The translations under genes and the position numbers were made by a program. From positions 1-16,979 of IMG/VR virus record IMGVR_UViG_2713896771_000020: a stretch of DNA of 16,979 nt; one strand, given 5' to 3'. The notes below the pieces were generated by a model. That model saw nothing but the letters and a program-made list of their open reading frames with translations. It searched no databases and was not told the DNA's origin. Positions 1 to 15,566 of the stretch are shown here, one piece after another (within the stretch, counting starts at the first letter, position 1; the number at the start of each line of letters is the position of its first letter). Source of the stretch: a virus. Its lineage: Duplodnaviria; Heunggongvirae; Uroviricota; Caudoviricetes.

Positions 1-309
1 CTAGTACTCAGGAAGATTTTCTAAATTATCCTTAGATGTACCATTGGCTCTAGTTGTAATGTAATCAATGTTGTTAACACGGTCTTTAACCACTTTTTGA
101 CCCTTCTTCCACTTACCGTCATCACCTATGAAAATGGTGTAAAACGTATAACCACTATCGATCTTATTCACTACCCACTGCCGTGTTTCTGATACCCCTC
201 CCCCAACAGTATCCCCCTTATCAACATGCACATACACATGGGTAATGTGAGTGTGCTTGTCGTTATATCGGACTTTAGAAATAAGGTAATCAGCCCATTT
301 ATCAATCAT
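1..309 (-). CDS. Hypothetical cargo protein, possibly DUF3892-like; ATG at 307-309 preferred, alternative TTG start at 361-363
   Basis: Complete ORF with stop at 1-3. GGTGG Shine-Dalgarno-like sequence just upstream of the ATG at 309. Motifs HTHITHV ... SGYTFYT ... NLENLPEY recalled as resembling DUF3892, tentative. About 35% GC by eye, well below the neighbouring terL. Confidence 0.45.
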   Translation of the reverse strand: MIDKWADYLISKVRYNDKHTHITHVYVHVDKGDTVGGGVSETRQWVVNKIDSGYTFYTIFIGDDGKWKKGQKVVKDRVNNIDYITTRANGTSKDNLENLPEY

Positions 310-458
310 ATTCCACCATAAGTTTGAACAGGAAAAGTCCTGCAATACTCTTATAAACAACAAAGCAGCGGCTTCCTACCCCACGATGGTAATATAGTGA
401 TCTAGAGCAATTTATATTTCCGATAACATCGACACAACTCCACATTTACACTCTATTC

Positions 459-2120: not shown

Positions 2121-2460
2121 GCTCGTCCTCTTCCTCTGTTTCCGGTGGATTTCTGCGGCGACTTACCGGGTCAAAACCCAGCAAAGAAGCCATTTTGATC
2201 ATTATTCTTTCAGCGTCAGCCTTTGCGCTCAGGGCGGGGTTTCTGCTCTCGCTGCCCTGACTGTTAACAATGCTGAACCCGCGCGTGGCAAGGTCTTCGA
2301 CGGCTTTGCGGTATATGGAGTAGTTAACGCAATACAGCTCCAGATTGCTCCAGTCGGCGGGGGTAAGGTCTTCCCGTCCGGAAAGCTGGCGCGATTTTTC
2401 CTTCCACTGCCTGACCGCGATTTCATCCAGGTAAGCGGGGGCTTTTGGTGGTCTTGCCAT
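2104..2460 (-). CDS. terS: Terminase small subunit (P27-like family)
   Basis: Start at ATG 2458-2460 (MARPPKAPAYLDE...). Size and motifs (LELYCVNYSIYRKA ... NPAL ... FGFDPVSRRR) typical of P27-type small terminases. Sits immediately upstream of and overlapping terL. Confidence 0.8.
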   Translation of the reverse strand: MARPPKAPAYLDEIAVRQWKEKSRQLSGREDLTPADWSNLELYCVNYSIYRKAVEDLATRGFSIVNSQGSESRNPALSAKADAERIMIKMASLLGFDPVSRRRNPPETEEEDELDRLA

Positions 2461-2582
2461 GTTCTTTTTTCGCCCAATTATTTTCAAAAAAATTCCCGTG
2501 CACAAAAATTTGAGGAGGCGTTCGGTGCCCGGCGGGGTCGGGTTTGTCCTGAAAACGCCCCCCACCCCGCCATACAGCCTCA

Positions 2583-2765
2583 TCAGCGATTGCGGAAACA
2601 TTCCATAACCTCGCGGTCACGGTCGGTTAATCGCTTCGCTGTGATGCGTTCTGCGCGTCCTGACGCTTTATCTTTATGCCCTGTTTCCTGTGTCTTCCAT
2701 GCGTCACGCTGCCTTATAAGTCCACGGATAAGGCGGTTTTGTTCCCGCTCATTCATCAGCGTCAT
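2583..2765 (-). CDS. Questionable small basic ORF (60 aa) in the HNH-terS spacer
   Basis: ATG at 2763-2765 and in-frame ORF, but no convincing Shine-Dalgarno and it overlaps the HNH 3' end. It may be non-coding and part of a cos or regulatory region. Confidence 0.2.
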   Translation of the reverse strand: MTLMNEREQNRLIRGLIRQRDAWKTQETGHKDKASGRAERITAKRLTDRDREVMECFRNR

Positions 2766-3189
2766 ACATCCAGTTATTGCGGTTAGCGGCCCGTTCTTCA
2801 TCTTCACGAAATCCACCTGCGGCACGCTTGCTTTTTGTTGCCGGATCAAGCCATTTCGTTTTCTGGTTATGACACGCCTGACACAATGGCTGATGGTTCC
2901 ATTCGGGCCAGAAGAGAACATCATCGCCGCCATCGATGGGGATAATGTGATCCACCACCACGGCGGGCGTATATATCCCCTTCTCAAGGCATCGCACGCA
3001 TAACGGGTTTTTACTCAGATACATGGCGCGGTATTTGTCCCACTGTCTGGAGTACCCACGCGCGCGGCGGTGTCCTCGTCTGGCATCCTCTGCACGCCAT
3101 GCCGCCCGCCTGTGCTCCTCACACTTACCGGACTTAACGCGCCTGTTACAGCCTGGTTCTGTACATCGTCTTAATGGTTGCCACGGCAT
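2749..3189 (-). CDS. HNH endonuclease (terminase-associated)
   Basis: Cys pairs and HNH core: CNRRVKSGKC ... CVRC ... VDHIIP ... WNHQPLCQACHNQKT. Located directly upstream of terS, as in HK97-like cos packaging modules. Confidence 0.9.
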   Translation of the reverse strand: MPWQPLRRCTEPGCNRRVKSGKCEEHRRAAWRAEDARRGHRRARGYSRQWDKYRAMYLSKNPLCVRCLEKGIYTPAVVVDHIIPIDGGDDVLFWPEWNHQPLCQACHNQKTKWLDPATKSKRAAGGFREDEERAANRNNWMYDADE

Positions 3190-3482
3190 CAGTACACCCC
3201 CACATCACGGTAAGCCGTCCAGAGTGCGCCTATCGTCATGGGTACGCGCGTTTTTGCGTTATCCGCGACAATCTGGCGATTTTCATACAGGTGAGCGATA
3301 AACATCATGCAGCCAATCTTTATGGCTGGCGTGAACTCCAGCCCGTCATCAAAGCGCCTGCCTATGTGTATCTGGCACGCCTCAAGCGATGCGGCAATGT
3401 ATCCGCTGATTAACTGGTCTTCATCGTCGCCATCGATGCGGCAATGGAGTTTCACTTCTTCCAGGGTGATAAGTTCTGTCAT
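3189..3482 (-). CDS. Head-tail connector protein (gp6-like)
   Basis: 97-aa protein MTELITLEEVKLHCRIDGDDEDQLI..., matching the characteristic N-terminus of gp6-type connectors. ATGA start/stop overlap with the upstream gene. Confidence 0.7.
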   Translation of the reverse strand: MTELITLEEVKLHCRIDGDDEDQLISGYIAASLEACQIHIGRRFDDGLEFTPAIKIGCMMFIAHLYENRQIVADNAKTRVPMTIGALWTAYRDVGVY

Positions 3483-3817
3483 TTTTCCGCGCCCTCACGA
3501 CAAAGAATTTCAAGGCGTGTCCTGGCGGCATCTGGCAGCGGTTGCCCGATGATATTCAGTACACGCCCCGCCAGCGGCCCCGTATTGACCTTTATCCGAC
3601 TGGTGGCGTTGATGTCCTTCCGGTAGCGTATCCATATCCTTACAGTTCCAGTCGCCAGCTCTGCACCTGATGAAATGGCCTCCTTGCTGCTGATCATGTT
3701 CACGCTTGCCCAGAGTGTGTGACCGTCCAGCCACGTTTCGAGTATTTCACCCGTCATGGCTCTGGTCTGTTTCAGGGTCTGAATCGTTACCCTGTCACGC
3801 AGTCGCCCTATGTTCAT
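3479..3817 (-). CDS. Head closure / head-tail adaptor protein
   Basis: MNIGRLRDRVTIQ ... TLWASV ... IRYRKDI ... pattern of head-closure proteins. ATG at 3815-3817 overlaps the portal stop (ATGA coupling). An upstream in-frame ATG at 3857-3859 is less likely. Confidence 0.65.
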   Translation of the reverse strand: MNIGRLRDRVTIQTLKQTRAMTGEILETWLDGHTLWASVNMISSKEAISSGAELATGTVRIWIRYRKDINATSRIKVNTGPLAGRVLNIIGQPLPDAARTRLEILCREGAEK

Positions 3818-5025
3818 TCCGGTTTTTCTCCCTCGCTGATTTTTACTTCCTGTTTCCATGCCTGGCTGAACTCATCACCACCATCACGCGGTGACAGTCC
3901 TTCACGTTCGCGGGCTTCGTTCGGACACATAACGCCGGATTTGATGCCGCGCTCATAGGTGGCAAAGCGTTCGCCAGGTGTGGCCCGTAACAGGTCCGCG
4001 CTGTCAAACTCCACCTGATACCGGATACCAGGTACAGGCGAGGCCACCAGCAGGGCGTTTTTTATCTGCTGCTCAAAGTTCGCCAGCCACGGGCGCATCG
4101 TCATGGTGAGAAATGCGCGGCTTGCCTCGCTGAAATTGCTGTAGGTGCTGTTGCTGTATTCCTGCAAAAAAATCGGCGAGACGTTGAACATTCTGGCGAT
4201 GTCTTCAATGGTGAAGCGACGGGAGGCCAGCCATTCAGCATCCTGATTACTCATGCCCAGCTGCTGATAGCTCATACCCCCTTCAAGGATGGGCGTTTTT
4301 CCGGCGTTTCTGGCCCCTTTGTAGCGTTCCAGTGCGGCTAATGCCTGTTTGCCCTTCACGCCGTCCAGCCATTCGCCTGACGTGATAACCCCTGCCGCCA
4401 TCATGCCATCACGCATCACGCTCGCGCCGTGGCGTTGTTGGGCCAGCCCAAGCCCCAGCGATTCGCGGCAGATGGTTACAGGTGAGCGCCCCATAAAACC
4501 GTCATCCGTGGAGTAACGAAGGTGGAGAACCTCCCACGGTAAATAGTTGCGGGTGTTTCCGGTGTAAGCGTCAGTGATGCAGTAGCGCCAGTTGTGTTCT
4601 CCTGTCTGCTCCATGTTCACCGACTGCGGCGGGTAAGGATGCAAAGCCGCCGGAAAACCATCACGCCCCCACTGAATCACCGCGTAAGCATTACCGTTTA
4701 ACAGGCAGTGGCGGATCATCATTCGCTTAAACTGGTAGGGAGTCTGCCACGCGTTCGGGCGCTCGTTGAGGATGTGATCGACCGGATGAGAATCAAGCCA
4801 CTCGCGGGCCTCCTTCCCCTTCTCATTGCGTACCAGGTACAGGTAACACGGCATGGTAGCCACCGCCTCAGAGATGACCGTCACGGCGTTCATGACGGCG
4901 GGCAGTGATTCCGCTGTCCCCGATGATACGTACTCACCCGCCCCCGTGTTCGATGTGCCAGCCAGCGCCATAAACTCATCAAGCGTCATGCTGCGCTGCT
5001 CTTTTTTTCTTCTGAAAGGCCACAT
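3814..5025 (-). CDS. Portal protein (HK97 family)
   Basis: 403-aa ORF with size and composition of HK97-type portals. GGGGG Shine-Dalgarno 6 nt upstream of ATG 5023-5025. Flanked by protease and adaptor genes. Confidence 0.85.
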   Translation of the reverse strand: MWPFRRKKEQRSMTLDEFMALAGTSNTGAGEYVSSGTAESLPAVMNAVTVISEAVATMPCYLYLVRNEKGKEAREWLDSHPVDHILNERPNAWQTPYQFKRMMIRHCLLNGNAYAVIQWGRDGFPAALHPYPPQSVNMEQTGEHNWRYCITDAYTGNTRNYLPWEVLHLRYSTDDGFMGRSPVTICRESLGLGLAQQRHGASVMRDGMMAAGVITSGEWLDGVKGKQALAALERYKGARNAGKTPILEGGMSYQQLGMSNQDAEWLASRRFTIEDIARMFNVSPIFLQEYSNSTYSNFSEASRAFLTMTMRPWLANFEQQIKNALLVASPVPGIRYQVEFDSADLLRATPGERFATYERGIKSGVMCPNEAREREGLSPRDGGDEFSQAWKQEVKISEGEKPE

Positions 5026-5026
5026 A

Positions 5027-5599
5027 TCACACCCCCGCTAAATCCGCCCACCAGCGGCGATTATCCGCACGCGGCATTTTTTCGGGGTGCTGCTCGTACA
5101 GGGAGCGGCGGGCCAGCTCCACGCCGGAATCAGGGTAAGCCGGTACGGATGTGACGGTAATTTCGTACAGTTCCGCAACCAGCACGGTGCGCACGCATGG
5201 ATCTGTTGTGGTATCCCATACATCCTTACGGGAACGAAAGCCAAAGCTCATGCCGGATATATCACCACGCTTAACCAGTTCGATAACGTCGCGCCCTGTA
5301 CTGGTATCCGGTGGGGTCAGTTCAAAGCGTAACCCTGTTTCATCCTCTTCCAGTTTCAGCGTGCCGGAACGGGTGCGCCCCAGTAACATACTGTGGTCAT
5401 GCTCATACAGGCCGCGAACGTCATTACCCGCCGCAAGCCATTCAGTAAACGCCCCCCGCTGGAATTTTTCGTAAAACTCACCCCATAACAGTTCTGAAAG
5501 CTTATCCCAGCGAACAACGTAGCCTGTAAGCGTGTTGCTGCCGCTGGTGGTGATTTCCGATGACCGGATTTCCATACTCTTCATAATTTTTTCACCCAT
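5027..5599 (-). CDS. Prohead maturation protease (HK97 family)
   Basis: 190-aa ORF; motif LYEHDHSMLLGRTRSGTL typical of HK97-type prohead proteases. Start among ATGs at 5597, 5582 or 5573 is uncertain. Confidence 0.8.
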   Translation of the reverse strand: MGEKIMKSMEIRSSEITTSGSNTLTGYVVRWDKLSELLWGEFYEKFQRGAFTEWLAAGNDVRGLYEHDHSMLLGRTRSGTLKLEEDETGLRFELTPPDTSTGRDVIELVKRGDISGMSFGFRSRKDVWDTTTDPCVRTVLVAELYEITVTSVPAYPDSGVELARRSLYEQHPEKMPRADNRRWWADLAGV

Positions 5600-5608
5600 A
5601 AAACACTA

Positions 5609-5628
5609 AAGGGGCTTTTAAGCCCCTT
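5609..5628 (-). terminator. Hairpin immediately after the major capsid gene (partial terminator or attenuator)
   Basis: 8-bp stem AAGGGGCT/AGCCCCTT with a 4-nt loop, followed on the minus strand by GUGUUUUAUGG. Lies between the capsid stop (5639) and the protease start. Confidence 0.5.
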
Positions 5629-5638
5629 CTGTATGCTG

Positions 5639-6796
5639 TTAATCGTCGTCCTGTGGCAGTTCCAGAATCTTGATCGCGTTCGAATCCACCACGCCACCGC
5701 CTAAATATTTCTGCGTGAAAATTTTGATGAAGCCCGGCTCTGTGAGGTTGTCCGGTCTGGTGCGAACACCTGTTTCGTGATCAACAATGTAGTAACCGCG
5801 TTTGAAGTCACCCAGGGCAATAACGTTATCAGGCATAAACTCCAGATATTCGACCGGAAGGCCCAGCAACGTATCAGGATCACCCGCCTGTAAACGGTCG
5901 CGCCAGATATAATCACCGTTCGCGTTCTTCACCTTCTGGAGTTTTGCCGCCGTCGTGGAGTTAACCACCCAGACCGCGTTTTTGCGGTATTTTTTACGTA
6001 ATGCAAATTTCAGGTCGATCAGCGGGTCCGCAGATGTCCACGCCAGAGATTCGGAAGGTTTAATTACCTGTAACGTACCAAAATCACGCTCTTTGTCGTT
6101 CTTCTCTGCACGGGGTACGGATAAAAAGCCTTTTGCTTTTTTGTCACCATCGCCCACAACCAGATCGCTTTCTTCGGTTTCCGTGAAGGTGTCGCCAATC
6201 TCACCCGTCAGCCATGAAAGGATGTCCACATCGGAAAAATCCACGATTTCCTGTGTGGTGCGCGGGTACGCATAGACCGGATACAGCTTAATGCTCACCT
6301 CGTTAATCTGCGGGGTGCTGGTCTGTTCGCGTGCCTTACCCTCTTCACCGTGGTTAACGGTCGCACCGCCAGCGGAAACAAGCTGCTTAAACTCGTTGCT
6401 GCTGATTTTCTTCACGGTACAGATGCGGCGCATGGTGGATTCATCCGCCAGCATTCGCATGATTTCGGTGTTCAGTTCAGGGATAACGGTATAACCACCA
6501 TCAGCGGGAACGCCTGTACTTAATGCGCGGGTTTCACCTGTCAGAATGTAGTTGCGGAGTTCTGCGGGGTCAGTGGTCTGACTGCTTTTACCTGGCTTGC
6601 TGCGCTCTTCGTCTGCAATGGCTTCAAGGCGGGAAATGTCTTTATCGAGGGATTCAGCTTTAGCGCGTAATTCGTCAAATGTTGCGCCCTCAGCATCGTT
6701 AAGACTGCGGTTTTCTTTTTCCGCGTTCTCCAGCATGTCGCGCATCTGATTTTTAATGGCGGTTTTCTGCTGGCGTAATTCGATTATTCTCGGCAT
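5639..6796 (-). CDS. Major capsid protein, HK97 fold, with N-terminal scaffold-like (delta) domain
   Basis: 385-aa ORF. N-terminal ~100 aa is charged and coiled-coil-like (ELRQQKTAIKNQMRDMLENAEKENRSL...), followed by a capsid-like body. Adjacent prohead protease. Confidence 0.88.
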   Translation of the reverse strand: MPRIIELRQQKTAIKNQMRDMLENAEKENRSLNDAEGATFDELRAKAESLDKDISRLEAIADEERSKPGKSSQTTDPAELRNYILTGETRALSTGVPADGGYTVIPELNTEIMRMLADESTMRRICTVKKISSNEFKQLVSAGGATVNHGEEGKAREQTSTPQINEVSIKLYPVYAYPRTTQEIVDFSDVDILSWLTGEIGDTFTETEESDLVVGDGDKKAKGFLSVPRAEKNDKERDFGTLQVIKPSESLAWTSADPLIDLKFALRKKYRKNAVWVVNSTTAAKLQKVKNANGDYIWRDRLQAGDPDTLLGLPVEYLEFMPDNVIALGDFKRGYYIVDHETGVRTRPDNLTEPGFIKIFTQKYLGGGVVDSNAIKILELPQDDD

Positions 6797-7050
6797 AAAA
6801 AAAGTCCTGGGGTTAAGTAAGGAACTCCAGGACGCGGCAAAAACTCAACCGTTTTTCATAAGGAAATCAGCAATCGCACCGATCGTTTTCCCGCCTGGTA
6901 ATGAATATTGGCGAGAACATTAACAGGCGGAAAAGTGGCCCCAGCGTCCTGGCACCACGGGCGAGAATAATCATGATTCAGTTCGGGTAAAATATGCCGA
7001 TCCTGTCAGTGAACAACGTGGAACAACCGCGAACAAATAATTTACAAAAA
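6797..7050 (-). promoter_or_regulatory. Leader and promoter region of the capsid/packaging operon
   Basis: 254-bp non-coding gap. Three 10-bp-phased TTGTTC repeats (7011-7036) lie upstream of a candidate -10 TATTTT (~6989-6994). Hairpin 6804-6833 followed by T7 abuts the capsid ATG. Confidence 0.5.
7011..7036 (-). repeat. Three direct repeats GAACAA (TTGTTC on the minus strand) at exact 10-bp spacing
   Basis: Plus strand reads GAACAAcgtgGAACAAccgcGAACAA at 7011-7016, 7021-7026 and 7031-7036. Confidence 0.9.
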
Positions 7051-7055
7051 ATGAC

Positions 7056-7083
7056 AAAAAGCCGGATTGCTCCGGCTGTATGC
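7056..7083 (-). terminator. Rho-independent terminator
   Basis: Stem GCCGGA/TCCGGC (7061-7066 and 7071-7076) with loop TTGC, followed on the minus strand by TTTTTGTCATTTTTT. Near-identical copy at 7408-7434. Confidence 0.75.
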
Positions 7084-7087
7084 GTGC

Positions 7088-7312
7088 TCAGTCCCTGATC
7101 CCTTTCAGAAATTCTATCAATGCATCTATCTGTTCAGGATTTACCGCCAGCATTTCACCGGACAGAGCACATCTCACAAAACCATGCTGATCCTTTTCAA
7201 TCAGTGCGCCCGTCTCCAGGAATGCGCGGTAATCATTGATGCTCATCGTCTCCATGTTGTCAGCATGGTATTTATCACGCTGTTTTAATATCTCATCAAA
7301 TTTCATCGGCAT
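7088..7312 (-). CDS. Hypothetical 74-aa protein in a moron-like cassette
   Basis: ATG at 7310-7312 with AGAGGA Shine-Dalgarno 8 nt upstream (MPMKFDEILKQRDKYH...). Bracketed by two near-identical intrinsic terminators. Confidence 0.55.
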   Translation of the reverse strand: MPMKFDEILKQRDKYHADNMETMSINDYRAFLETGALIEKDQHGFVRCALSGEMLAVNPEQIDALIEFLKGIRD

Positions 7313-7407
7313 TGTTTTTTCCTCTGTTGTGTCTGTTTGTTTCAGATAGTAACTATGCCTGACCGTGACGAAAACCCGGTAATGCGCCATACCGTTTCAA
7401 CTGGTGC

Positions 7408-7434
7408 AAAAAAAGCCGGATTTCTCCGGCTGTG
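7408..7434 (-). terminator. Rho-independent terminator (second copy of the same element)
   Basis: Stem GCCGGA/TCCGGC (7415-7420 and 7425-7430) with loop TTTC, followed on the minus strand by T7. Immediately after the stop of the 7438-7710 gene. Confidence 0.8.
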
Positions 7435-7437
7435 TGA

Positions 7438-7710
7438 TTAGCTGTCCTGGTAATTTCGCCATATTTCATCACCAGCACCATCCATACCCATTTCGGCATA
7501 AGTGCGATCGACCGCCTTTTTCAGGTCTCCGTAATTATCCGGCGGCTCCGGTGGCCTCTGTGCCTTCCTGGAACATTCCAGCCGTCGCATCGTAACCTGA
7601 TGCCGTTCCTTGTCTGTCTCCACCAGCAGCATGACTTCACCCCATCGCGCCGACGCCCTCCGGTAAAAGCCTTTTGCCTCGAGTTCCTCCGCTATGCGGT
7701 CATGTACCAT
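7438..7710 (-). CDS. Hypothetical 90-aa protein
   Basis: ATG at 7708-7710 with GAGGGGG Shine-Dalgarno, just downstream of the ssb stop. The longer ORF-track start overlaps ssb out of frame and is rejected. Confidence 0.5.
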   Translation of the reverse strand: MVHDRIAEELEAKGFYRRASARWGEVMLLVETDKERHQVTMRRLECSRKAQRPPEPPDNYGDLKKAVDRTYAEMGMDGAGDEIWRNYQDS

Positions 7711-7720
7711 CGTCACCCCC

Positions 7721-8131
7721 TCAGAACGGAATATCATCACCGTAGGGGTCATCGTCTCCCGCTGGTGGCTGATTACCCTGTGTGCCTGTGGTTTTGCGTC
7801 TGTTCCCGCCAGGACGTGCCGCACGGGCACTGATTACGCTGTCTGCAATAACCTGATACCCCTGCCGTGTTTCCCCGTTCTGTCCGGTCCACTGGCTTAC
7901 CTGCATCGTGCCGGATACGCTGGCAACATCGCCTTTTTGATGTTTAGCCAGGAAATCGGCCTGTTTGCCAAATGCGATAACCGATAACCATAACGTCGCC
8001 TGTCCGTCATGTGCCTGGCTGCATGGCAACGATACCGCCATACGCGCCAGAGTCATCGGTGTGCCCTTGCTGCTCTGTTTTACCAGCGGGTCGTCCACCA
8101 GGCGCCCGTAAGCTGCAATTTGTGCTGTCAT
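7721..8131 (-). CDS. ssb: Single-stranded DNA-binding protein with acidic C-terminal tip
   Basis: 136-aa ORF with SSB-like core (TLWLSVIAFGKQADFLAKHQKGDVASVSGTMQVSQW), Gly-rich linker and C-terminal DDDPYGDDIPF, the conserved SSB tail. GAGGTGG Shine-Dalgarno. Confidence 0.8.
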   Translation of the reverse strand: MTAQIAAYGRLVDDPLVKQSSKGTPMTLARMAVSLPCSQAHDGQATLWLSVIAFGKQADFLAKHQKGDVASVSGTMQVSQWTGQNGETRQGYQVIADSVISARAARPGGNRRKTTGTQGNQPPAGDDDPYGDDIPF

Positions 8132-8140
8132 ATTGCCACC

Positions 8141-8446
8141 TCAGTGAAGCGATCCGGCGTTGTTCTTTTTCATCTCTTCCATCATTTTTTCAGTGAGCAT
8201 TACGCACTGAAAACCCATGTTTTTGATGTCTACGGGTTTCATGCCTTTGTCAGTGGATATCACAGGCAGAATATCCTGATACACATCGCGGTCAGGGTAA
8301 CTAAGCACACAAAGCGCCCATGATGCCACGGGTGAGGATCCTTCGTCTGTTTCAACCCACCAGCCTGGTGTAGCTGCGCTTATTTGCAGAATCGTGATCA
8401 GTCCGTTGTGCTTGTAAAGTTTTTCACCAAATTTTGGTTCGCTCAT
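8141..8446 (-). CDS. Hypothetical 101-aa protein
   Basis: ATG 8444-8446 with GGAGAGGTGG Shine-Dalgarno. ATGA overlap with the upstream gene. No recognisable motif. Confidence 0.5.
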   Translation of the reverse strand: MSEPKFGEKLYKHNGLITILQISAATPGWWVETDEGSSPVASWALCVLSYPDRDVYQDILPVISTDKGMKPVDIKNMGFQCVMLTEKMMEEMKKNNAGSLH

Positions 8447-8694
8447 GATTCCACCTCTCCGGTTTTAACGTTGATGGTTGTTACCTGTTCCGCTTCGGCA
8501 ATCTCCCGTTCTGTCAGCGTGGCAAAGTTTGCCGCCGCCGTGGTCATGAATGCGCTTATCAGGTCGGGATGTTCCTTCGCGTATCCTTCCCGCGTGTGGC
8601 GGTCTATCGTTCTGATTGCCACCTTTAAGGTGTGCTCAGTCATGTCTAACGCTTTATATTTTGGCTCTGTTCTGTCTCTGCGTTTTTGGGTCAT
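8443..8694 (-). CDS. Hypothetical 83-aa protein (start uncertain: 8694, 8724 or 8643)
   Basis: In-frame ORF translationally coupled to the downstream gene. Its upstream region overlaps the iteron array. Confidence 0.4.
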   Translation of the reverse strand: MTQKRRDRTEPKYKALDMTEHTLKVAIRTIDRHTREGYAKEHPDLISAFMTTAAANFATLTEREIAEAEQVTTINVKTGEVES

Positions 8695-8703
8695 TTCTCG
8701 CAA

Positions 8704-8897
8704 CCTCTCACTTTTTCGCCTCACTTTTTCAAGCGTCTCACTTCGTCGCAGCTGGGATTTTCGGTTTTTCTATGTGTGTGTTTCATAAGTATTTTTTTAC
8801 CCCTCACTTTTGAGGATGTATACAGGTCGAAAAGTGAGGGAGAGCAGGCTAATTTTGGCCCTCTTTCTATCCACCTCGCTTTTGCTCCTCACTTTTA
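8704..8897. repeat. Iteron array, putative replication origin of the island
   Basis: CTCACTTTT-type repeats at 8707, 8720, 8737 (degenerate), 8803, 8874 (degenerate) and 8888, plus one inverted copy AAAAGTGAG at 8830-8838. Adjacent AT-rich tract 8783-8800. Lies immediately 3' of the replicase gene. Confidence 0.65.
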
Positions 8898-10295
8898 TAG
8901 CGGCGCTACATCATCCCCATCGATACGAATAACCCCATCTTTTTCCAGCTTGTACAGCCAGCGCCGGAAGTTTTTCATTTCATACCCCAGCTTTTTCATG
9001 TCATCACGTAACAGCGGGATCGTGCACTTGTCGCCGTTCTGTGTGCGTGAACGGATGCACCCCCATAAAGCGGTATGGTTTTCCGTCTTGTTCCCGGCCT
9101 CCTCGATGCGCTCCAGTTCAACAGGAGGGCGCGGATCATCCACCACCACCAGCGACGTGATTAATTCACCGTCAGCGTCGGTAAAAAGCTCCACCACGCG
9201 TAAGTCATATGCGGCTTCTTTGAGTTCCTCCGCGTCCTTCATTTTGGTGCATGAGATAACCAGCGCTTCGCTTCCTGCGTCCTCCCTGCGTATCCGGTAT
9301 TCAGCATCCAGCGAAGCACGAAATGCACTGGAACCGCGCGCGCCTTTCGTCTCATCCTTGCCGGAATGGTGAACCACCAGCACCGTGGCCCCTGTGCGTC
9401 GTTTCAGTTCGTCACAACCACGGATAAACGCCCCCATATCACGGGAATCATTTTCATCATTCCCACCAAAGCAACGCGCCAGCGTATCCAGAATAATCAT
9501 GCGAACAGGTTTACCCGTTTCCCGCTCCACCTGACGGGCAGCGATAACCATTTCATCAACATCAAGCGGGGCAGCCGGAAAGATGGGGCGGTTTACCAGA
9601 TACAGATTTTTCACCTGCTCATCGTGCACAACCTCCCAGGCTTTTACACGACGCGGAACACCTATACCGCCTTCACCAACCACATAGAGAACCGCACCAT
9701 GCGCAACCCTGCGGCCTCCCCACTGGCGACCAGTGGCAACATGGCACGCCCACGATCCGGCAAGGAATGATTTATAGGACCCGCTAGCCCCGTATATGCT
9801 GCATAGCGATACCGCCGGAATAATCCCCTTAACCACGTAATCCAGTTGCGTGTCGTATCCGGTAGATCCAACGCTCATCGGTAGCGTGGTTTTTCGCTGG
9901 TGGTTTTTTTCTTCCGCCGGCTCTTTCCCACGCACCCGTTCCAGGTATTCGCGCCAGTTCTCCCGCATATGGCTGTGCATCCCTTCGGGGTAATAATTCG
10001 CATCAGTTACACCCGCCGCCGCCAGCTTGTGCGCAATGGCATTAATATTTGATGGCCTGATGTGGCCTGCCTTGTACAGCCGGACACAATAGCGCCCCTC
10101 GTCGATGATTCTCAGGTCTGCCAGTTCATCCAGTTGATCATCAGCCAGCACAACGGGAGGCACATTATCGCCAGCCAGTCGCCCGTCCTGTTCCTGCCAC
10201 TGTTTCGCATGTGCCCAGGCATCACTACCCGCAAAAATAATGACTTCGGTCATCTTGTCGTAAGGCTGTTTTTTTAAGTTCGGTGCGCTTTTCAT
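8895..10295 (-). CDS. Primase/replicase-type replication initiator with RecA-like (RepA/AAA_25-type) ATPase domain
   Basis: 466-aa ORF. P-loop-like YGASGSYKS, Walker B MIILDTL, and VVHHSGKD motif typical of RepA-like helicase loaders. ATGA coupling to the upstream gene. Confidence 0.75.
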   Translation of the reverse strand: MKSAPNLKKQPYDKMTEVIIFAGSDAWAHAKQWQEQDGRLAGDNVPPVVLADDQLDELADLRIIDEGRYCVRLYKAGHIRPSNINAIAHKLAAAGVTDANYYPEGMHSHMRENWREYLERVRGKEPAEEKNHQRKTTLPMSVGSTGYDTQLDYVVKGIIPAVSLCSIYGASGSYKSFLAGSWACHVATGRQWGGRRVAHGAVLYVVGEGGIGVPRRVKAWEVVHDEQVKNLYLVNRPIFPAAPLDVDEMVIAARQVERETGKPVRMIILDTLARCFGGNDENDSRDMGAFIRGCDELKRRTGATVLVVHHSGKDETKGARGSSAFRASLDAEYRIRREDAGSEALVISCTKMKDAEELKEAAYDLRVVELFTDADGELITSLVVVDDPRPPVELERIEEAGNKTENHTALWGCIRSRTQNGDKCTIPLLRDDMKKLGYEMKNFRRWLYKLEKDGVIRIDGDDVAPL

Positions 10296-10591
10296 TTCTT
10301 GCCCCTGAATACGTTAAGCATCTTTTTTATTTCCTGAATATTGGCGCGTGCTTTCTCCCTGCTGGTTGGTTTACTGCGGGGCGCTGCCTGTACCAGAGAA
10401 AAATCACGCCGGAACTGATAAACAGGCATCACGCAGTCATATTCGTAGCCTTCACGGCGGTAGGTAATGCGTCGCTCTTCTACACCTTTAATCGTTACGG
10501 TGCCGCCGTACTGGTCGCGGTAAATATCGCCGCGCGTAAATTTAGGGTGAGTGTTGCCACTGGCAGTTAAGCCAGAATATTTAAGTTTCAT
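10292..10591 (-). CDS. Hypothetical 99-aa protein
   Basis: ATG 10589-10591; intact ORF in the same operon directly upstream of the replicase. Confidence 0.5.
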   Translation of the reverse strand: MKLKYSGLTASGNTHPKFTRGDIYRDQYGGTVTIKGVEERRITYRREGYEYDCVMPVYQFRRDFSLVQAAPRSKPTSREKARANIQEIKKMLNVFRGKK

Positions 10592-10596
10592 TATTT

Positions 10597-10830
10597 TTAT
10601 TCTCCGGTGTGCTGTTCTTTATATCTGTCGTGCAATATATCTATTTCTTGCAGTTCCATTATTACAGGATCAAGAAGCGTTATTAATGCCGTGGCAATTC
10701 TTGATTTTTGTTTGTCGCGTTCATTGTCGCCAAGTGTTTCAAGCCATATGCGCAATATTTCCAGCATGTTTTCACTGTGAGAAAGTGCAAGAAATGCGCG
10801 GTCTATTGTTTGGTGGTAAATATCACGCAT
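10597..10830 (-). CDS. Hypothetical 77-aa protein, AT-rich gene
   Basis: ATG 10828-10830 with GAGGA Shine-Dalgarno. Local GC visibly lower than flanking genes. Confidence 0.5.
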   Translation of the reverse strand: MRDIYHQTIDRAFLALSHSENMLEILRIWLETLGDNERDKQKSRIATALITLLDPVIMELQEIDILHDRYKEQHTGE

Positions 10831-11272
10831 GGCTTACATCCTCAGGAAATTTTCTTCTATAACGCGCCTCTGCCACATATTCCGCATAATCGGCGGCGAT
10901 ATTCAGTACATCAAGCCCCGTTGATTTATATTCTCTCGTGGAAAGTAAGAAAAAAGCCGCTCTAATAAGTTCTGGCATTGACGAAAGCGCATCAGCCGCA
11001 TCATCAGGAACGCCGGAAAATTCCTGTTTCAGGGAATTAAAACGATCATCACGCATAACCCCCCCCCCATTTTCACAATCAGCAACAAGAATATTTTTAG
11101 CGTCATTCAGCGACCGCGTTGCGGTGTATCGGATACATTCCAGGGCGAATAGTGTGTATTCTTCCCTTTCTTCCTTTTGTGCAAGCTCTGCTGTGCATTC
11201 AATATCAATAAGCGCGTGCATCAGCGTAGTGAGTGCGGCGGCGGCTGCGTCCGGTGTGGTTTTATTGCACAT
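10823..11272 (-). CDS. Hypothetical 149-aa protein containing a G10 homopolymer tract
   Basis: ATG 11270-11272 with GGAGGGG Shine-Dalgarno. The coding strand carries GGGGGGGGGG (plus-strand C10 at 11059-11068) encoding ENGGGV. Confidence 0.5.
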   Translation of the reverse strand: MCNKTTPDAAAAALTTLMHALIDIECTAELAQKEEREEYTLFALECIRYTATRSLNDAKNILVADCENGGGVMRDDRFNSLKQEFSGVPDDAADALSSMPELIRAAFFLLSTREYKSTGLDVLNIAADYAEYVAEARYRRKFPEDVSHA

Positions 11273-11492
11273 GTACCCCTCCGCATTTTTTTTCGTTAGA
11301 AATAAGCGTTCTTCTTTCCTGTTCATCGATCAGGAATACGCAGACCTCACCGCTAAGGCGTTTAAGTAAGCCGATGATTGCCCCTGATTCGCTGTCGGTC
11401 ATCATGCCTGGGTAATCCTCTGCCAGTGCGCAAATAACTTCGATTTGGTGGGCGCGTTCTACTGCCTGTTGTAGTGTGATTTCCTGGCTCAT
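11262..11492 (-). CDS. Hypothetical 76-aa acidic protein
   Basis: ATG 11490-11492 overlapping the stop of the upstream gene (ATGA). No recognisable motif. Confidence 0.5.
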   Translation of the reverse strand: MSQEITLQQAVERAHQIEVICALAEDYPGMMTDSESGAIIGLLKRLSGEVCVFLIDEQERRTLISNEKKCGGVHVQ

Positions 11493-11689
11493 AAGCCTAC
11501 CCCCTGACGAATACGGGCAGCGAATACCATCACGCAGCCAGCCGGGGATTGCAGGCGTGCTTCCTGTTCGCTGGTGGCCTCAATGGTAATCACGCGCGGT
11601 TGTGCAGTGCTCAGGGCGATAAAACGCCAAATGTATTTATTCAGGTTGTGCGAGTCCCGCCCTTGCGGGTGTGTGGTATGATTTCTCAT
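11489..11689 (-). CDS. Hypothetical 66-aa protein, first gene of the leftward early operon
   Basis: ATG 11687-11689 with GAGGT Shine-Dalgarno (MRNHTTHPQGRDSHNLNKYIWRF...). The ORF-track 381-aa extension upstream is non-coding promoter sequence. Confidence 0.5.
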   Translation of the reverse strand: MRNHTTHPQGRDSHNLNKYIWRFIALSTAQPRVITIEATSEQEARLQSPAGCVMVFAARIRQGVGL

Positions 11690-11885
11690 AGCTACCTCGA
11701 TACTCTCGTTATCGTTGGTGGTTAGAAGCCCCGTTACTGCTCCTACAGTGCGGGGTTTCGTCGTTTCTGCACCTTGCATTAACAAGGTGTAAGTAACTTT
11801 ATTTATAGGTGGCTTACATGTCAATGCTTTTATGTAAGACTTTTTATGTGTATATTGTCTTACACTTTCATTGAGAGGATTACAG
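11690..11885. promoter_or_regulatory. Divergent promoter/operator switch region
   Basis: Minus-strand promoter: perfect -35 TTGACA (11819-11824), 17-nt spacer, -10 TAAAGT (11796-11801). Plus-strand candidate -10 TATATT (11851-11856). Inverted repeats CTTACAT/ATGTAAG (11814-11820 and 11833-11839), TGTAAGAC/GTCTTACA (11834-11841 and 11858-11865), CACCTTG-N6-CAAGGTG (11770-11789). Confidence 0.6.
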
Positions 11886-12191
11886 ATGGCTACAGGTTCA
11901 AAAAACGCAAAATCACAATCACTGACAGCTCGGATCCCGCATGATGTTATTGAAGGCATGGAATCCGTAAAACTGGACGGTGAAAGCAACGCCGGATTCA
12001 TAGTAACCGCCATGCGCGGTGAAATCGCCCGCCGCCAGGCAGAAGGAAGCGGAGAAAACCTCCTGATTTCTTCGCTCAATGCACTGGCGCAGGTGGAAAA
12101 ACTCGGAATCAAAGCCGCCGAGGAGATCGGGCAGCTCGTCACTGTCGCACGTGAAGAACTCCAGCGCCGCAAGACTAAAGAACCAGAGTAA
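11886..12191 (+). CDS. Small ribbon-helix-helix-like DNA-binding protein, candidate island repressor
   Basis: ATG 11886 with GAGAGGA Shine-Dalgarno. N-terminal beta-strand/helix pattern SLTARIPHDVIEGMESVKLDGESNAGFIVTAMRGEIARRQ resembles Arc/CopG-type folds. Divergent from the early operon. Confidence 0.5.
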   Translation: MATGSKNAKSQSLTARIPHDVIEGMESVKLDGESNAGFIVTAMRGEIARRQAEGSGENLLISSLNALAQVEKLGIKAAEEIGQLVTVAREELQRRKTKEPE

Positions 12192-12248
12192 TCACCATCA
12201 GCGCCGTGGTGTAAGGTATTACGGCGCATTGCTATGCAGGACAACACA

Positions 12249-12422
12249 ATGACCGATAAAGAATTGACCAAAACATTATCACCGGCACGGAAAAGACGGC
12301 GCAGAAAGATAGAGCATGAATCAGAAAGATTCGCGCCATGTGCTTTTGCCCTTGAGCAATTCCTTAAAGAGTACAGGGAAAAGCGCTCATTGCAGGTATG
12401 GCAACGAACTGAACCAGACTGA
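12249..12422 (+). CDS. Hypothetical 57-aa basic protein
   Basis: ATG 12249 with AGGA Shine-Dalgarno 7 nt upstream (MTDKELTKTLSPARKRRRRK...). Second gene of the short plus-strand operon. Confidence 0.4.
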   Translation: MTDKELTKTLSPARKRRRRKIEHESERFAPCAFALEQFLKEYREKRSLQVWQRTEPD

Positions 12423-12517
12423 TTGCATTGCCCACCAGCCTGATAGCGGCTATCATCCCCGTGCTTATGTTTGGGATCACATACACAAACGGCGCAGCGG
12501 GTTATCTGTTCAGAAAG

Positions 12518-12545
12518 GCGGCTCCATTTCGGGGCCGCTTTTTTT
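12518..12545 (+). terminator. Rho-independent terminator of the plus-strand regulator operon
   Basis: 8-bp stem GCGGCTCC/GGGGCCGC with one G-U pair and loop ATTTC, followed by T7. A second AU-rich hairpin CTGAAAAAC/GTTTTTCAG lies at 12550-12579. Confidence 0.7.
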
Positions 12546-12691
12546 ATACCTGAAAAACCCCAATTTTGTTGTTTTTCAGTTTCACCAGGGCGAACGAATC
12601 CCCGCCCACGTTCTGGCGTATATTCAATCTTCATGGTTATGGCTCTGTGTTCAGATGATTGATGTGTGGCGGCTGCGTGCCGCCAGCGTGA

Positions 12692-12880
12692 TTAATGAAC
12701 TGCCTTGCAGCTATCCTTCCAGGCCAGAACCTCGGATAAAGACCAGCCAACGGAACGACCGCCAAGTTTACGACGTGATGGGAATTGTCCGGCCTTTTCC
12801 AGGCGGTAGCGGCATGAGCGGCTAAGGCCTGTTAGCTTTTCGCATTCTTTTTCACGTATAAACCGATCAGTGCTTAACAC
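12692..12880 (-). CDS. alpA: AlpA-family (excisionase-like) transcriptional regulator
   Basis: 62-aa protein; core LTGLSRSCRYRLEKAGQFPSRRKLGGRSVGWSLSEVLAWKDS matches the AlpA/Xis-like winged-helix signature. GTG start with GGGGG Shine-Dalgarno. Immediately downstream of int in the same orientation. Confidence 0.85.
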   Translation of the reverse strand: MLSTDRFIREKECEKLTGLSRSCRYRLEKAGQFPSRRKLGGRSVGWSLSEVLAWKDSCKAVH

Positions 12881-13163
12881 TATTGCCCCCTTTCGTTTCT
12901 TAAAGAGTTATTTCGTGTTCTATTGCGTTGGGATGTGTCTGATTGTGTCAGGATGATTCAGAGTTGGCAAATGTTGAGGCCGTATGGTTTACAGAAAGAG
13001 GAATAATCAGGATAAAATCATTTAAATTCATGTTAATACAAAGGCATAAAATATTGTTTCATGCCTTTTTTCTCGCTATTTAAAGAGTGATTCGCTAGTG
13101 TATAAAAAACCAGTAACACATTAAAAATCAGCTACTTATAAATCTGTACACTTTTTCGCCTCT

Positions 13164-13208
13164 TGTTCGTAGTTGTTCCGCATTGTTGCTCATTGTTGCA
13201 CGTTGTAT
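13164..13208 (+). repeat. Four to five direct repeats TTGTT(C/G) at 10-bp spacing
   Basis: TTGTTC at 13164 and 13174, TTGTTG at 13184 and 13194, degenerate TTGTAT at 13203. Same motif and phasing as the arrays at 7011-7036 and 14539-14574. Confidence 0.85.
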
Positions 13209-13221
13209 CTGTTCGCATATC

Positions 13222-13237
13222 CAGTATGCGCATACTG
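13222..13237. promoter_or_regulatory. Perfect 16-bp palindrome CAGTATGCGCATACTG
   Basis: Exact dyad symmetry directly adjacent to the repeat array, in the int-alpA intergenic region. No flanking U-run, so a protein site is more likely than a terminator. Confidence 0.5.
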
Positions 13238-13254
13238 AAAAAATACGAAAAAAA

Positions 13255-14484
13255 TTATTTTCTTCTGGCTACTGGTAGCGTGGTTACGTTTTCATGTGTT
13301 CCCGCCAGTATCCCTAACCGCTCCATCCACATATCCAGCACATTGCGTTTAGCATCCAGATAACGGGAATGATTATAAACTCGCTGCATTCCTGGCATCT
13401 GGTGGCCTGTAAGCTGCTCCACGACATGCGGATCAACGCCTAAATCGTTCAGCATGGTTGTAAAGGTGCGCCGGATGTCATGCAGTGACCAGTGAGGATG
13501 ATTAAGCCTCCTGTGCGCTAATCTTCCATACTGCGATACGCTGGCCTCCTGTTTCACTTCCCCCAGCAATAAGCCCGTGTGCCTGTTCTGCTCCACCAGC
13601 TGCGTGACGAACGGCAGGATCGCTTCCGGTATGGGCCGGAATATTGCGACCTTCGTTTTGCTGTGCTCCTTCGGAACGGTCCATAGCATTTCCGTAAAAT
13701 CCCACTCCCCGATCTCCGATAGCCTCAGTTCTACCGTCCTGGCTCCGAAGACAATCAGGAGGCGGATTAACGCGACGTAGTAAGGGGAAAATATTTTTTT
13801 GTCCAGTGCCTGCAATAATTCGCCAAGTTCTTTGTTACTTAAGACACGTTCGCTTATATCCGGTTTTTTCCCAACGTCCGCCACGTTCAGATCGTCCAGA
13901 ACGTTGCTGATTGCATAGCGCCGCCTACGGCAGAACTTAAGCGCCTGTTTGCACGCCTGTAGCACGAATCCGGCAGTAACAGGCGTTCGCTTTGCCACCT
14001 GGTCAAAACAGGCCAGCCAGTGCCGTAGCTCGCATTTATCCAGCGGCATAGCACCAATCTGCTGTATTACGTGATTATTAAGTCGCCTTTTCAGGGCGAT
14101 ATAATCCACGCGGTTTTCCTTTACGTAATACTCAAGCCAGTAGGTGAGCGCATCGCCAACCGTTACGGGCTTTAACGCTTCCTGTACGGTGTAATTCATC
14201 TCATGACGTGGATTTTTCCCCTCAGCCAGCCATGTGCGACACTGTGCGGCTTTTTCCCTGGCTGCTTTCAGGCTCAGATCAGGATAACTTCCCAGCTTAA
14301 TGCGTTCGGGTCGTGTCTCCCTTCCCGTTCCGGCCCTGTATGTGAAATACCAGGTCAATTTCCCTGATGTTAAATATTTCACGCTCAGGTTTCCGCCATC
14401 ACTATAAAACGTGTTTTTCTCCGCTGGCTTACCATGAAGTTTCCTTAGCAAGGTATCGCTCAGTTTGTTCATTGCTCTGCTCAC
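13255..14484 (-). CDS. int: Tyrosine site-specific integrase (P4-like family)
   Basis: 409-aa ORF; C-terminal catalytic region with HDIRRTF ... LTGHQ ... RVYNHSRY (R, H-x-x-R, Y). GTG start 14482-14484 with AGAGGGGG Shine-Dalgarno; alternative ATG at 14472. Adjacent to the insertion junction. Confidence 0.9.
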   Translation of the reverse strand: MSRAMNKLSDTLLRKLHGKPAEKNTFYSDGGNLSVKYLTSGKLTWYFTYRAGTGRETRPERIKLGSYPDLSLKAAREKAAQCRTWLAEGKNPRHEMNYTVQEALKPVTVGDALTYWLEYYVKENRVDYIALKRRLNNHVIQQIGAMPLDKCELRHWLACFDQVAKRTPVTAGFVLQACKQALKFCRRRRYAISNVLDDLNVADVGKKPDISERVLSNKELGELLQALDKKIFSPYYVALIRLLIVFGARTVELRLSEIGEWDFTEMLWTVPKEHSKTKVAIFRPIPEAILPFVTQLVEQNRHTGLLLGEVKQEASVSQYGRLAHRRLNHPHWSLHDIRRTFTTMLNDLGVDPHVVEQLTGHQMPGMQRVYNHSRYLDAKRNVLDMWMERLGILAGTHENVTTLPVARRK

Positions 14485-14507
14485 GTTTTACCCCCTCTTT
14501 ACGAAAA

Positions 14508-14531
14508 AGTGACTACACCAGTGACTACACC
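14508..14531. repeat. Perfect tandem 12-bp direct repeat AGTGACTACACC x2 in the int promoter region
   Basis: Copies at 14508-14519 and 14520-14531, about 25 bp upstream of the int start codon. Confidence 0.9.
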
Positions 14532-14538
14532 GATCGTT

Positions 14539-14574
14539 GCACAAAGGGCTACAACGTGAAACAAGCTGGAACAA
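14539..14574 (-). repeat. Four 10-bp-phased TTGT repeats upstream of int
   Basis: Plus strand has ACAA at 14541, 14551, 14561 and 14571. Minus strand reads TTGTTC, TTGTTT, TTGTAG, TTGTGC at exact 10-bp intervals. Confidence 0.8.
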
Positions 14575-14660
14575 GGAAAATCACAAATCTGTTGATAATC
14601 AAAAACATAATGCACAGCCTGAAACATTATGAAACAGCAAAAAACACTAAATGATAAAAT

Positions 14661-15566
14661 GCTGTTATTCTTAACCCGCTGGTGCAACACATGGTCCGCT
14701 GGCGAGTGCCGCGTGTACTGGCGGTGTCGATTTTGATGACCATCATCGTGATGGCGATGGTGTTGCTATTAGCTTATCTGGGTTCCGCGCTCAACGAGTT
14801 GACGCGGACGTTACCGCAATATCGCAACTCTATTATGACGCCGCTGCAAGCTCTTGAGCCGTTGTTGCAACGCGTAGGGATTGACGTCTCAGTTGACCAG
14901 CTGGCGCATTACATTGATCCGAACGCGGCGATGACGTTGCTCACCAACTTATTGACGCAGTTATCTAATGCCATGTCATCAATATTTTTATTGCTGCTGA
15001 CGGTGCTGTTTATGCTGCTCGAAGTGCCACAATTGCCCGGAAAATTTCAGCAAATGATGGCGCGTCCGGTTGAAGGGATGGCGGCGATTCAACGTGCAAT
15101 TGACAGTGTTTCTCATTATCTGGTGCTGAAAACAGCCATCAGCATCATCACCGGCCTGGTCGCCTGGGCGATGCTCGCCGCACTCGATGTTCGCTTCGCT
15201 TTTGTCTGGGGATTGCTGGCCTTTGCGCTTAATTACATCCCTAATATTGGTTCAGTTCTCGCGGCAATCCCCCCTATCGCTCAGGTACTGGTGTTTAATG
15301 GCTTCTACGAAGCGTTGCTGGTGCTGGCGGGATATCTGCTGATTAATCTGGTCTTCGGCAATATTCTGGAGCCGCGCATCATGGGACGTGGGCTGGGGCT
15401 TTCCACATTGGTGGTATTTTTGTCGTTGATTTTTTGGGGATGGTTGTTAGGACCGGTGGGTATGCTGCTTTCCGTGCCGTTAACAATTATTGTCAAAATT
15501 GCGCTTGAACAAACAGCGGGAGGTCAAAGCATCGCCGTTCTGTTAAGCGATCTCAATAAAGAGTGG
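14661..15566 (+). pseudogene. tqsA: 5'-truncated tqsA (AI-2 exporter, AI-2E family), disrupted by the island
   Basis: Translation from 14661 reads [22 protein letters not shown]... through the conserved AI-2E transporter body. An in-frame stop at 14652-14654 and AT-rich island DNA lie immediately upstream, so the N-terminal transmembrane segment and promoter are absent. 3' limit set by the expected stop near 15564, which is TGG in this sequence. Confidence 0.7.

Follow-up and report, generated by a model that had tools for sequence, protein, structure and literature searches.

We propose that the 196-bp region at positions 11690-11885 of the window (the whole stretch of DNA analysed, 16,979 bp long) is the immunity, or maintenance, switch of a capsid-forming PICI (cf-PICI). 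In this reading, which we consider likely, repression by the ribbon-helix-helix (RHH) protein YlcI would be combined with nesting of the switch in an eta-like ORF, with AlpA read-through and with an antisense RNA. As judged from the sequence, YlcI is probably the repressor that keeps the island silent; this assignment is based on the co-variation of the core of its putative operators with the YlcI strand and on the presence of an Arc-like cassette in an O157-type island. The initial annotation had described the region as a repressor-controlled lysogeny switch with the RHH protein as the likely repressor. The arrangement of operators and promoters and the co-variation agree with a repressor-controlled switch, but the element is a satellite and not a lysogenic phage. 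The choice of the RHH protein is favoured by the fact that the site core co-varies with its predicted DNA-contacting strand over 171 loci, a link that is correlative.

The window is a piece of E. coli chromosome (over a 1-kb query it matches strain 2013C-4991 at 100% identity and Nissle 1917 at 97.9%) in which an island of ~14.5 kb splits tqsA, the AI-2 transporter gene, beside pntB. The halves of tqsA are found at window positions 1-104 and 14661-15566 and, as they flank the island, it should span ~105-14660; a search for att-type direct repeats of at least 10 bp between the island ends gave none in the stretches compared. The island contains int, an AlpA-family gene, the plus-strand YlcI/YnfO gene and a leftward operon. 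This operon comprises the Icd-like gene, small ORFs, DUF4222, a RepA-family helicase, SSB and PerC, and then the capsid and packaging genes (major capsid, prohead protease, portal, connectors, HNH, TerS and TerL). No tail or lysis genes are present in the RefSeq annotation of the identical island of strain 2013C-4991. Because this gene content equals the published cf-PICI set (int, alpA, replication genes plus capsid, portal, protease, connector and terminase genes, without tail or lysis genes, in ~15 kb), the element is, by its genes, a cf-PICI satellite and not a phage. It has been reported that cf-PICI induction needs alpA, and helper-phage- and alpA-dependent induction and transfer are known only for EcCIEDL933. 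Among Gram-negative PICIs, AlpA serves as an activator and the global repressor has been described as "unclear", and the sole role that a 2026 survey gives to YlcI/YnfO in cf-PICIs is that of an accessory protein associated with prophages. Among 5426 complete E. coli genomes, 1754 contain a match to some part of the 1-kb region, at as many as six places in a genome, and 375, Nissle 1917 among them, contain at least 80% of it. The sole phage-collection record matching the Icd-like protein is LR881103.1 ("Escherichia phage vB_KppS-Ant", 16,548 bp), whose size suggests a cf-PICI deposited as a phage. We also observed that the 167-aa ORF at 10823-11326 (minus) is annotated as two genes in RefSeq, and that in PHROGs the entire ORF (phrog_2512) and either half have a family of their own.

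The 196-bp region fills exactly the gap between the ATG of the Icd-like gene (11689, minus) and the ATG of the YlcI/YnfO gene (11886, plus). The three inverted repeats previously reported there are all present, namely CTTACAT/ATGTAAG (11813-19 and 11832-38, spacer 12), TGTAAGAC/GTCTTACA (11833-40 and 11857-64, spacer 16) and CACCTTG/CAAGGTG (11770-76 and 11783-89, spacer 6). An additional pair, AAGGTGTAAG/CTTACACTTT (11784-93 and 11859-68), joins the outermost sites. We also recovered the proposed TTGACA promoter as a leftward TTGACA (11824-11819) followed after 17 nt by TAAAGT (11801-11796), which is the sole sigma-70-like match in a consensus scan of 11400-12300. The repeated sites overlap two back-to-back promoters, as had been claimed, but they do not form nested palindromes: instead of two nested operators there are four evenly spaced 11-bp sites (S1 to S4; Table 1), with distances of 22, 23 and 23 bp between their centres. 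All four are copies of the form GTG-N5-CAC, the core being TGTAAG(A) in this island. S4 is the best match to the site in the whole window, with one mismatch, and S3 is the most degenerate of the four in most of the classes compared (see below). The density of these repeats exceeds chance: out of 12 occurrences of the hexamer TGTAAG/CTTACA in the 16,979-bp window, four cluster within 80 bp (Monte Carlo P = 1.8e-4), and the 196-bp region holds four perfect 7-nt inverted-repeat seeds against 0.2 expected (dinucleotide shuffles, P = 0.002). The ylcI promoter has no good or recognisable -35, and the consensus scan of 11400-12300 did not report it.

Table 1. Features of the proposed switch and its surroundings (window coordinates).
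Feature	Position	Strand	Description
S1, putative operator	11787..11797	+	GTGTAAGTAAC; overlaps -10 and +1 of PL
S2, putative operator	11809..11819	-	minus-strand reading ATGTAAGCCAC; in PL spacer, abuts -35
S3, putative operator	11832..11842	+	ATGTAAGACTT; overlaps weak -35 region of ylcI promoter
S4, putative operator	11855..11865	-	minus-strand reading GTGTAAGACAA; overlaps -10 and start site of ylcI promoter
PL, leftward promoter	11796..11824	-	predicted start ~11788-11790; counterpart of P4 PLE
ylcI promoter -10, TATATT	11851..11856	+	fixed distance from ATG in relatives, where it is mostly TATACT; predicted start ~11863
Third inverted repeat, CACCTTG-N6-CAAGGTG	11770..11789	-	probable hairpin at mRNA 5' end
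Conserved hairpin (11725-11759) and U-rich tail	11725..11768	+	proposed terminator of antisense small RNA
Candidate antisense small RNA gene	11674..11768	+	extended -10 TGG TATGAT, 11674-11682; start ~11689; ~80 nt
Icd-like gene, 66 aa	11489..11689	-	P4 kil equivalent; NF033153, E = 2.4e-19
Eta-like long ORF, 381 aa	11489..12634	-	antisense through orf57, ylcI and the whole switch
ylcI, 101 aa, YlcI/YnfO family	11886..12191	+	proposed repressor; N-terminal ribbon-helix-helix domain
orf57, 57 aa, MTDKELTKTL...	12249..12422	+	downstream of ylcI; PHROG 21027, E = 1.2e-15, function unknown
Intrinsic terminator after orf57	12518..12545	+	read from sequence
alpA, AlpA-family helix-turn-helix	12692..12880	-	P4 vis equivalent; Pfam PF05930, E = 5e-18

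The only curated-model match of YlcI is NCBIfam YlcI_YnfO_N (E = 5.5e-20); no Pfam family was matched at E <= 0.01, and the comparison of its HMM profile with PDB sequences gave no RHH match. In the AlphaFold model residues 11-18 are extended, residues 19-28 and 35-54 form helices and the C-terminus is a long helix, so that the predicted structure has a strand-helix-helix fold of ~45 residues of the ribbon-helix-helix type. The C-terminal helix carries a helix-hairpin-helix-like motif: residues 55-90 weakly resemble this fold (L..V..LGIK.A.EI), with a match to Hef at E = 0.008 in the profile search against the PDB. A short form of the protein (59-61 aa) is found in some genera, at loci that lack S3, and the relatives from Xenorhabdus and Superficieibacter, without the C-terminal half, are likewise without S3. 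No YlcI relatives were found by tblastn in 50,697 phage records. Downstream of ylcI, orf57 is conserved in the O157-type island (L002) considered below, and the good intrinsic terminator that follows it on the plus strand is probably the end of the ylcI transcript; both orf57 and this terminator lie antisense inside the eta-like ORF.

The main evidence connecting YlcI with the four sites comes from the comparison of 171 loci with YlcI relatives, gathered from genomes of 11 species, IMG/VR and metagenomes. In all of these loci the most repeated 7-mer upstream of ylcI is placed at about -98, -74, -54 and -28 from the ATG, and the class-specific core of S1 recurs at about -98 in all classes. A leftward -35 of the TTGAC/TTGAT type with a spacer of 17-18 nt is present in 20 of 23 representative loci, 18 of which also have a TAnnnT -10, and the rightward TATAcT -10 is kept across loci. 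The site core co-varies with YlcI residues 12-15, within the strand motif 11-16, in eight classes. Thus, the strand SQS[LV]TAR goes with the core GTG-TAAGA-CAC, SQL[TF]TVR with GTG-TGTTT-CA (the sites of class B, with strand SQLTTVR, being GTGTGTTTC), SQMTTIR with GTGAGATAT / GTGATATAC, SKQISIR with GTGTGATTY, SQIKNVR with GTGTG[CT]AT, SQMTTVR with GTGTATTTCAC, SQQLNAR with GTGCGATTC and SQKLQAR with GTGGACTCCAC, giving at least eight putative specificity classes in YlcI loci. Positions 12 and 13 of the strand are among the most variable of the domain. The high variability of strand residues 12-15 and their co-variation with the core give indirect evidence that a YlcI dimer would place a two-stranded sheet in the major groove of the repeated sites. 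Conservation of the sites is 0.70 inside class A against a background of 0.51, and 0.40 across classes against a background of 0.39. This co-variation of strand and site core is what a cognate repressor-operator pair predicts, and linkage in a recombining cassette contributes to it, since the strand and the sites are only ~50 bp apart.

One locus, L010, does not fit this rule completely, as it has class-A strand residues yet mostly GTGTAATTA sites. Its contig is labelled Pseudomonas lundensis and carries a typical enterobacterial YlcI/Icd module whose sites mix GTGTAATTA and GTCTTACAT; the module could be there by contamination or by horizontal transfer. In the O157-type island L002, in which the gene order is alike, the position of ylcI is occupied by an unannotated Arc-like ORF of 57 aa (3825-3998, plus) that hits the PHROG family of an Arc-like repressor (E = 1.5e-6). 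It is accompanied by two perfect GGTAATTACC palindromes at a position equivalent to that of the switch. The ylcI gene of the DLP12 prophage of K-12 has no comparable four-site layout and is found in a different context, beside cos and nohD, and for these reasons it is uninformative on the strand-operator rule.

The region is not an intergenic one: it sits inside a leftward ORF that is kept open by selection and is equivalent to eta/kil of P4. Sequence statistics together with homology to P4 indicate that the switch is nested in a translated leftward ORF that runs from downstream of alpA to the Icd/Kil-like domain. In the window this eta-like ORF contains PL and ends in frame as the Icd-like domain, and the replication and packaging operon begins with the Icd-like gene as its first cistron. 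The minus-strand frame through ylcI and the switch is free of stops in all but four of ~100 distinct loci. For nine class representatives, the 110 bp upstream of ylcI contain no in-frame antisense stops versus 31 and 31 in the other frames (P = 1.2e-11). Within ylcI itself, with which the eta-like frame shares wobble positions, a T-ending codon never precedes a CAN codon (0/53) and a pyrimidine-ending codon never precedes a TAN codon (0/10). Such stop-codon avoidance is consistent with translation of the eta-like ORF preventing Rho-dependent termination. Elsewhere, the eta-like ORF is either fused with icd or ends ~20 nt before the icd ATG.

The start of the long ORF also appears to be coupled to a preceding gene in many relatives. 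An upstream ORF ends at or near the start codon of the long ORF in 14 of 17 loci (none in the other three), its stop overlapping the ATG or lying at most 10 nt before it in 12 of those 14, and many of the long-ORF starts among these loci carry a Shine-Dalgarno. The upstream proteins are AlpA-like or excisionase/MerR-like in three to five loci (L004, L165, L014, perhaps L011 and L113), the remaining ones being Bro-N, Rha-like or other proteins. In the window, alpA lies upstream of the eta-like ORF and shares its frame; the eta-like ATG has a weak Shine-Dalgarno and is 57 nt past the alpA stop, without overlap. The frame is open from the alpA stop onward, and right after this stop, at 12667-12694 (minus), there is a 7-bp GC-rich hairpin (TGGCGGC-ACGCA-GCCGCCA) without a U-tract. 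This weak Shine-Dalgarno with the 57-nt gap, and the weak bidirectional hairpin formed by the 12518-12545 terminator inside the eta-like ORF, count against our preferred explanation, as do the imperfect locus L010, the missing -35 of the ylcI promoter and the wide spacing of the sites. We considered that the 381-aa antisense ORF might be an artefact or shadow ORF, and dropped this idea in view of the frame-specific stop depletion, the coupled starts and the parallel with P4. RefSeq annotates 12083-12634 (minus), overlapping ylcI, as an "Icd-like pseudogene, missing C-terminus", as it also does in L002 and L003, apparently an artefact caused by the nesting of the genes.

The same skeleton is found in the left operon of P4 (PLL - vis - eta/kil - PLE, CI RNA). 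The toxic kil product (65 aa) and the Icd-like protein (66 aa) share one NCBIfam domain, the kil-like gene makes up in both cases the 3' end of an ORF whose start is upstream of an internal promoter, and this longer ORF (eta in P4) follows an AlpA homologue. The P4 ORF at 8168-8812 has the Icd-like domain at its C-terminus (E = 1.4e-20), as does the ORF of the window, and the ATGATGATG start of P4 eta overlaps the vis stop. In P4 a constitutive promoter is located inside eta, Kil being a truncated Eta, and full-length Eta comes exclusively from the late promoter upstream, in coupling with the alpA homologue, its translation preventing termination (PMC10111431). The long ORF of the window, kept open, fits this rule of eta translation. 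The two systems differ in the immunity determinant, which in P4 is an RNA (Rfam C4) that acts on seqA (Rfam isrK). Rfam detected both the C4 (CI) and isrK (seqA) RNAs in the P4 region and neither of them in the window (E <= 10) or in 20 representative loci with the RHH cassette, and this absence indicates that the protein cassette occupies the place of the RNA immunity determinants.

The description of the switch stands as regards its repeats and promoters, but it had overlooked a probable antisense RNA. The hairpin at 11725-11759 is kept in all classes, with compensatory changes in six of 13 pairs, and standard base pairs account for 98.0% on the plus strand versus 88.6% on the minus strand, where pairing is lower because many G-U pairs turn into A-C. 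We considered the hairpin as part of the leftward mRNA, perhaps a C4/CI-like RNA, a possibility that was overturned by these strand-specific counts. A -10-like hexamer is found 36-39 nt upstream of GGTTAGA, the base of the hairpin (~42-45 nt before the stem), and this distance is fixed in all icd allele types. In the window this element is the extended -10 TGG TATGAT, which falls in the first icd codons. The plus-strand segment has a fold z-score of -6.4, and the candidate small RNA is complementary to the icd Shine-Dalgarno, start codon and leader. All this suggests a plus-strand antisense RNA of ~80 nt over the icd ribosome-binding site. Rfam searches of 11400-12300 at E <= 10 and of the whole window at gathering score returned nothing relevant, with no C4, isrK or sar.

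On the leftward transcript, the third inverted repeat lies indeed at the start, as had been noted, 0-2 nt from the predicted PL start, but it is not a class-specific operator. Its arms are unchanged across classes with differing operator cores and the hairpin is absent from classes B and C, which argues against its being a YlcI operator; the 5' end of the PL transcript probably folds here into a stem-loop, and some loci form hairpins at this place from other sequences. In the same leader the conserved motif UCUAACCACC (11690-11724, minus) can pair with the icd Shine-Dalgarno GAGGUAG and may form a stem of the PL transcript that hides it.

These RNA features give some weight to a first alternative, in which YlcI does bind the sites, but mainly for autoregulation or fine-tuning, while icd and the replication genes are silenced chiefly at the RNA level as in P4, by the antisense small RNA, the leader structure that hides the Shine-Dalgarno and Rho-dependent termination, so that AlpA read-through would be the only real switch. 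The P4 precedent is wholly based on RNA and translation, the plus-strand hairpin is strongly conserved and there is a candidate small RNA, the leader stem would hide the Shine-Dalgarno, and it is known that AlpA overexpression alone induces EcCICFT073. We nevertheless regard this alternative as unlikely, given that in every class S1 and S2 extend over the PL core, that a near-consensus PL would otherwise fire constitutively and that there is no C4 or isrK RNA.

Somewhat less likely still is that some factor different from YlcI recognises the four repeats, be it AlpA, a replication initiator (the repeats being origin iterons), the Eta/Icd-like protein or a host protein, with YlcI having an unrelated role. 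Evenly spaced direct and inverted 11-mers do look like iterons, the label of the Icd-like family in PHROGs is "transcriptional repressor", the eta-like peptide antisense to ylcI also varies with the cassette, and the link between YlcI and the sites is, as mentioned, a correlation. Against this, class A loci differ in their upstream regulator, which can be AlpA, MerR-like or Rha-like. As one operator class thus occurs with different upstream genes, specificity follows ylcI and not alpA. An initiator is disfavoured since the replication genes of the loci inspected differ (a RepA-family helicase in the window, of class A, versus a primase-family protein in L003, of class B), since the sites lie on promoter elements and not beside rep, and since the cloned replication region of EcCICFT073 has the rep gene together with a putative ori site. 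Moreover, the ribbon-helix-helix domain is the sole class-specific DNA-binding fold encoded in the cassette. Finally, that the repeats are incidental to the eta-like coding sequence or to RNA folding and have no operator role is very improbable, even though selection keeps open the ORF in which the region lies and the leftward leader folds well, because coding constraint gives no class-specific 9-11-mer four times at fixed places relative to the -35 and -10 in eight classes, because the repeats are enriched within the window, and because in class E the orientation pattern differs with the core kept, which rules out RNA stems.

Under our preferred reading, in which YlcI is the repressor, YlcI dimers would bind the four 11-bp GTG-N5-CAC sites, as inferred from the positions of these sites. 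Occupation of S1 and S2 would cover the -10, the +1 and the spacer of PL and keep the icd(kil)-replication-packaging operon off, and occupation of S3 and S4 would cover the weak promoter of ylcI itself, resulting in autoregulation. The ~80-nt plus-strand RNA, antisense to the icd ribosome-binding site, is predicted to function as a second lock. By analogy with P4 and with the PICI literature, a helper phage would switch on the alpA transcript, and the ensuing transcription and translation through the antisense ylcI and the operators might bypass both YlcI repression and any block at the RNA level.

By function, the closest systems would be P4, with the same skeleton and a different effector, and immI of P22 (mnt / arc / sar RNA / ant), with the same kind of effector and a different skeleton. 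In P22 immI a divergent RHH repressor covers its target promoter and the promoters are back to back, a likeness that here is one of layout only. The P22 operator is a single one of 17-21 bp, whereas here there are four sites 22-23 bp apart, a spacing wider than that of classical Arc or Mnt operators. The regulated gene is also different, being Icd/Kil-like here and not ant, and in some relatives Bro, Rha and Ant genes are found upstream, not downstream. In P22 a small antisense RNA acts on the ribosome-binding site of the gene that comes first downstream (PMC2629481), to which the antisense RNA predicted here against the ribosome-binding site of the first gene would correspond. There is no detectable sequence homology of YlcI to Mnt or Arc, the fold alone being in common.

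Other immunity systems share parts of this arrangement. As with Stl/Rpr of SaPIs and other Gram-positive PICIs, the gene of the candidate repressor separates the integrase side from the replication-packaging operon, from which it is divergent. Stl proteins bind DNA by a helix-turn-helix domain and lose their activity through helper proteins, whereas the candidate described here is a ribbon-helix-helix protein whose gene is nested antisense in an ORF, and induction of Gram-negative PICIs runs through AlpA. In P1 immI (c4 RNA - icd - ant) an Icd-family gene is the first one translated in the controlled operon and is gated by a small RNA. An Icd-family gene heads the controlled operon in the window too, but the c4 RNA of P1 is on the same strand as its target and is Rfam C4, unlike the hairpin of the window, which is on the opposite strand and has no C4 match.

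What is new in this work is a repressor candidate for a type of satellite without a described repressor. More tentatively, and with rather less than even confidence, we suggest that the master repressors still missing from the picture of Gram-negative PICIs are RHH proteins of the YlcI/YnfO type, carried on interchangeable immunity cassettes that lie antisense within the translated eta-like ORF and have taken the place of the P4-type C4/CI RNA. These cassettes would comprise at least nine specificities, including the Arc type, with both overlapping genes under selection, and AlpA-driven transcription induced by a helper, together with eta translation, would override the repressor as well as an antisense small RNA. 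The locus is in this respect a clean case of overlapping antisense genes that are both selected. It provides a concrete candidate repressor with mapped sites and natural specificity variants for Gram-negative PICIs, and it links PICI control to the eta/kil logic of P4. If this is true, the specificity classes would decide on the immunity and compatibility of satellites residing in one genome, and the way in which such satellites are silenced and released bears on gene transfer, on phage therapy and on engineered PICI "drones".
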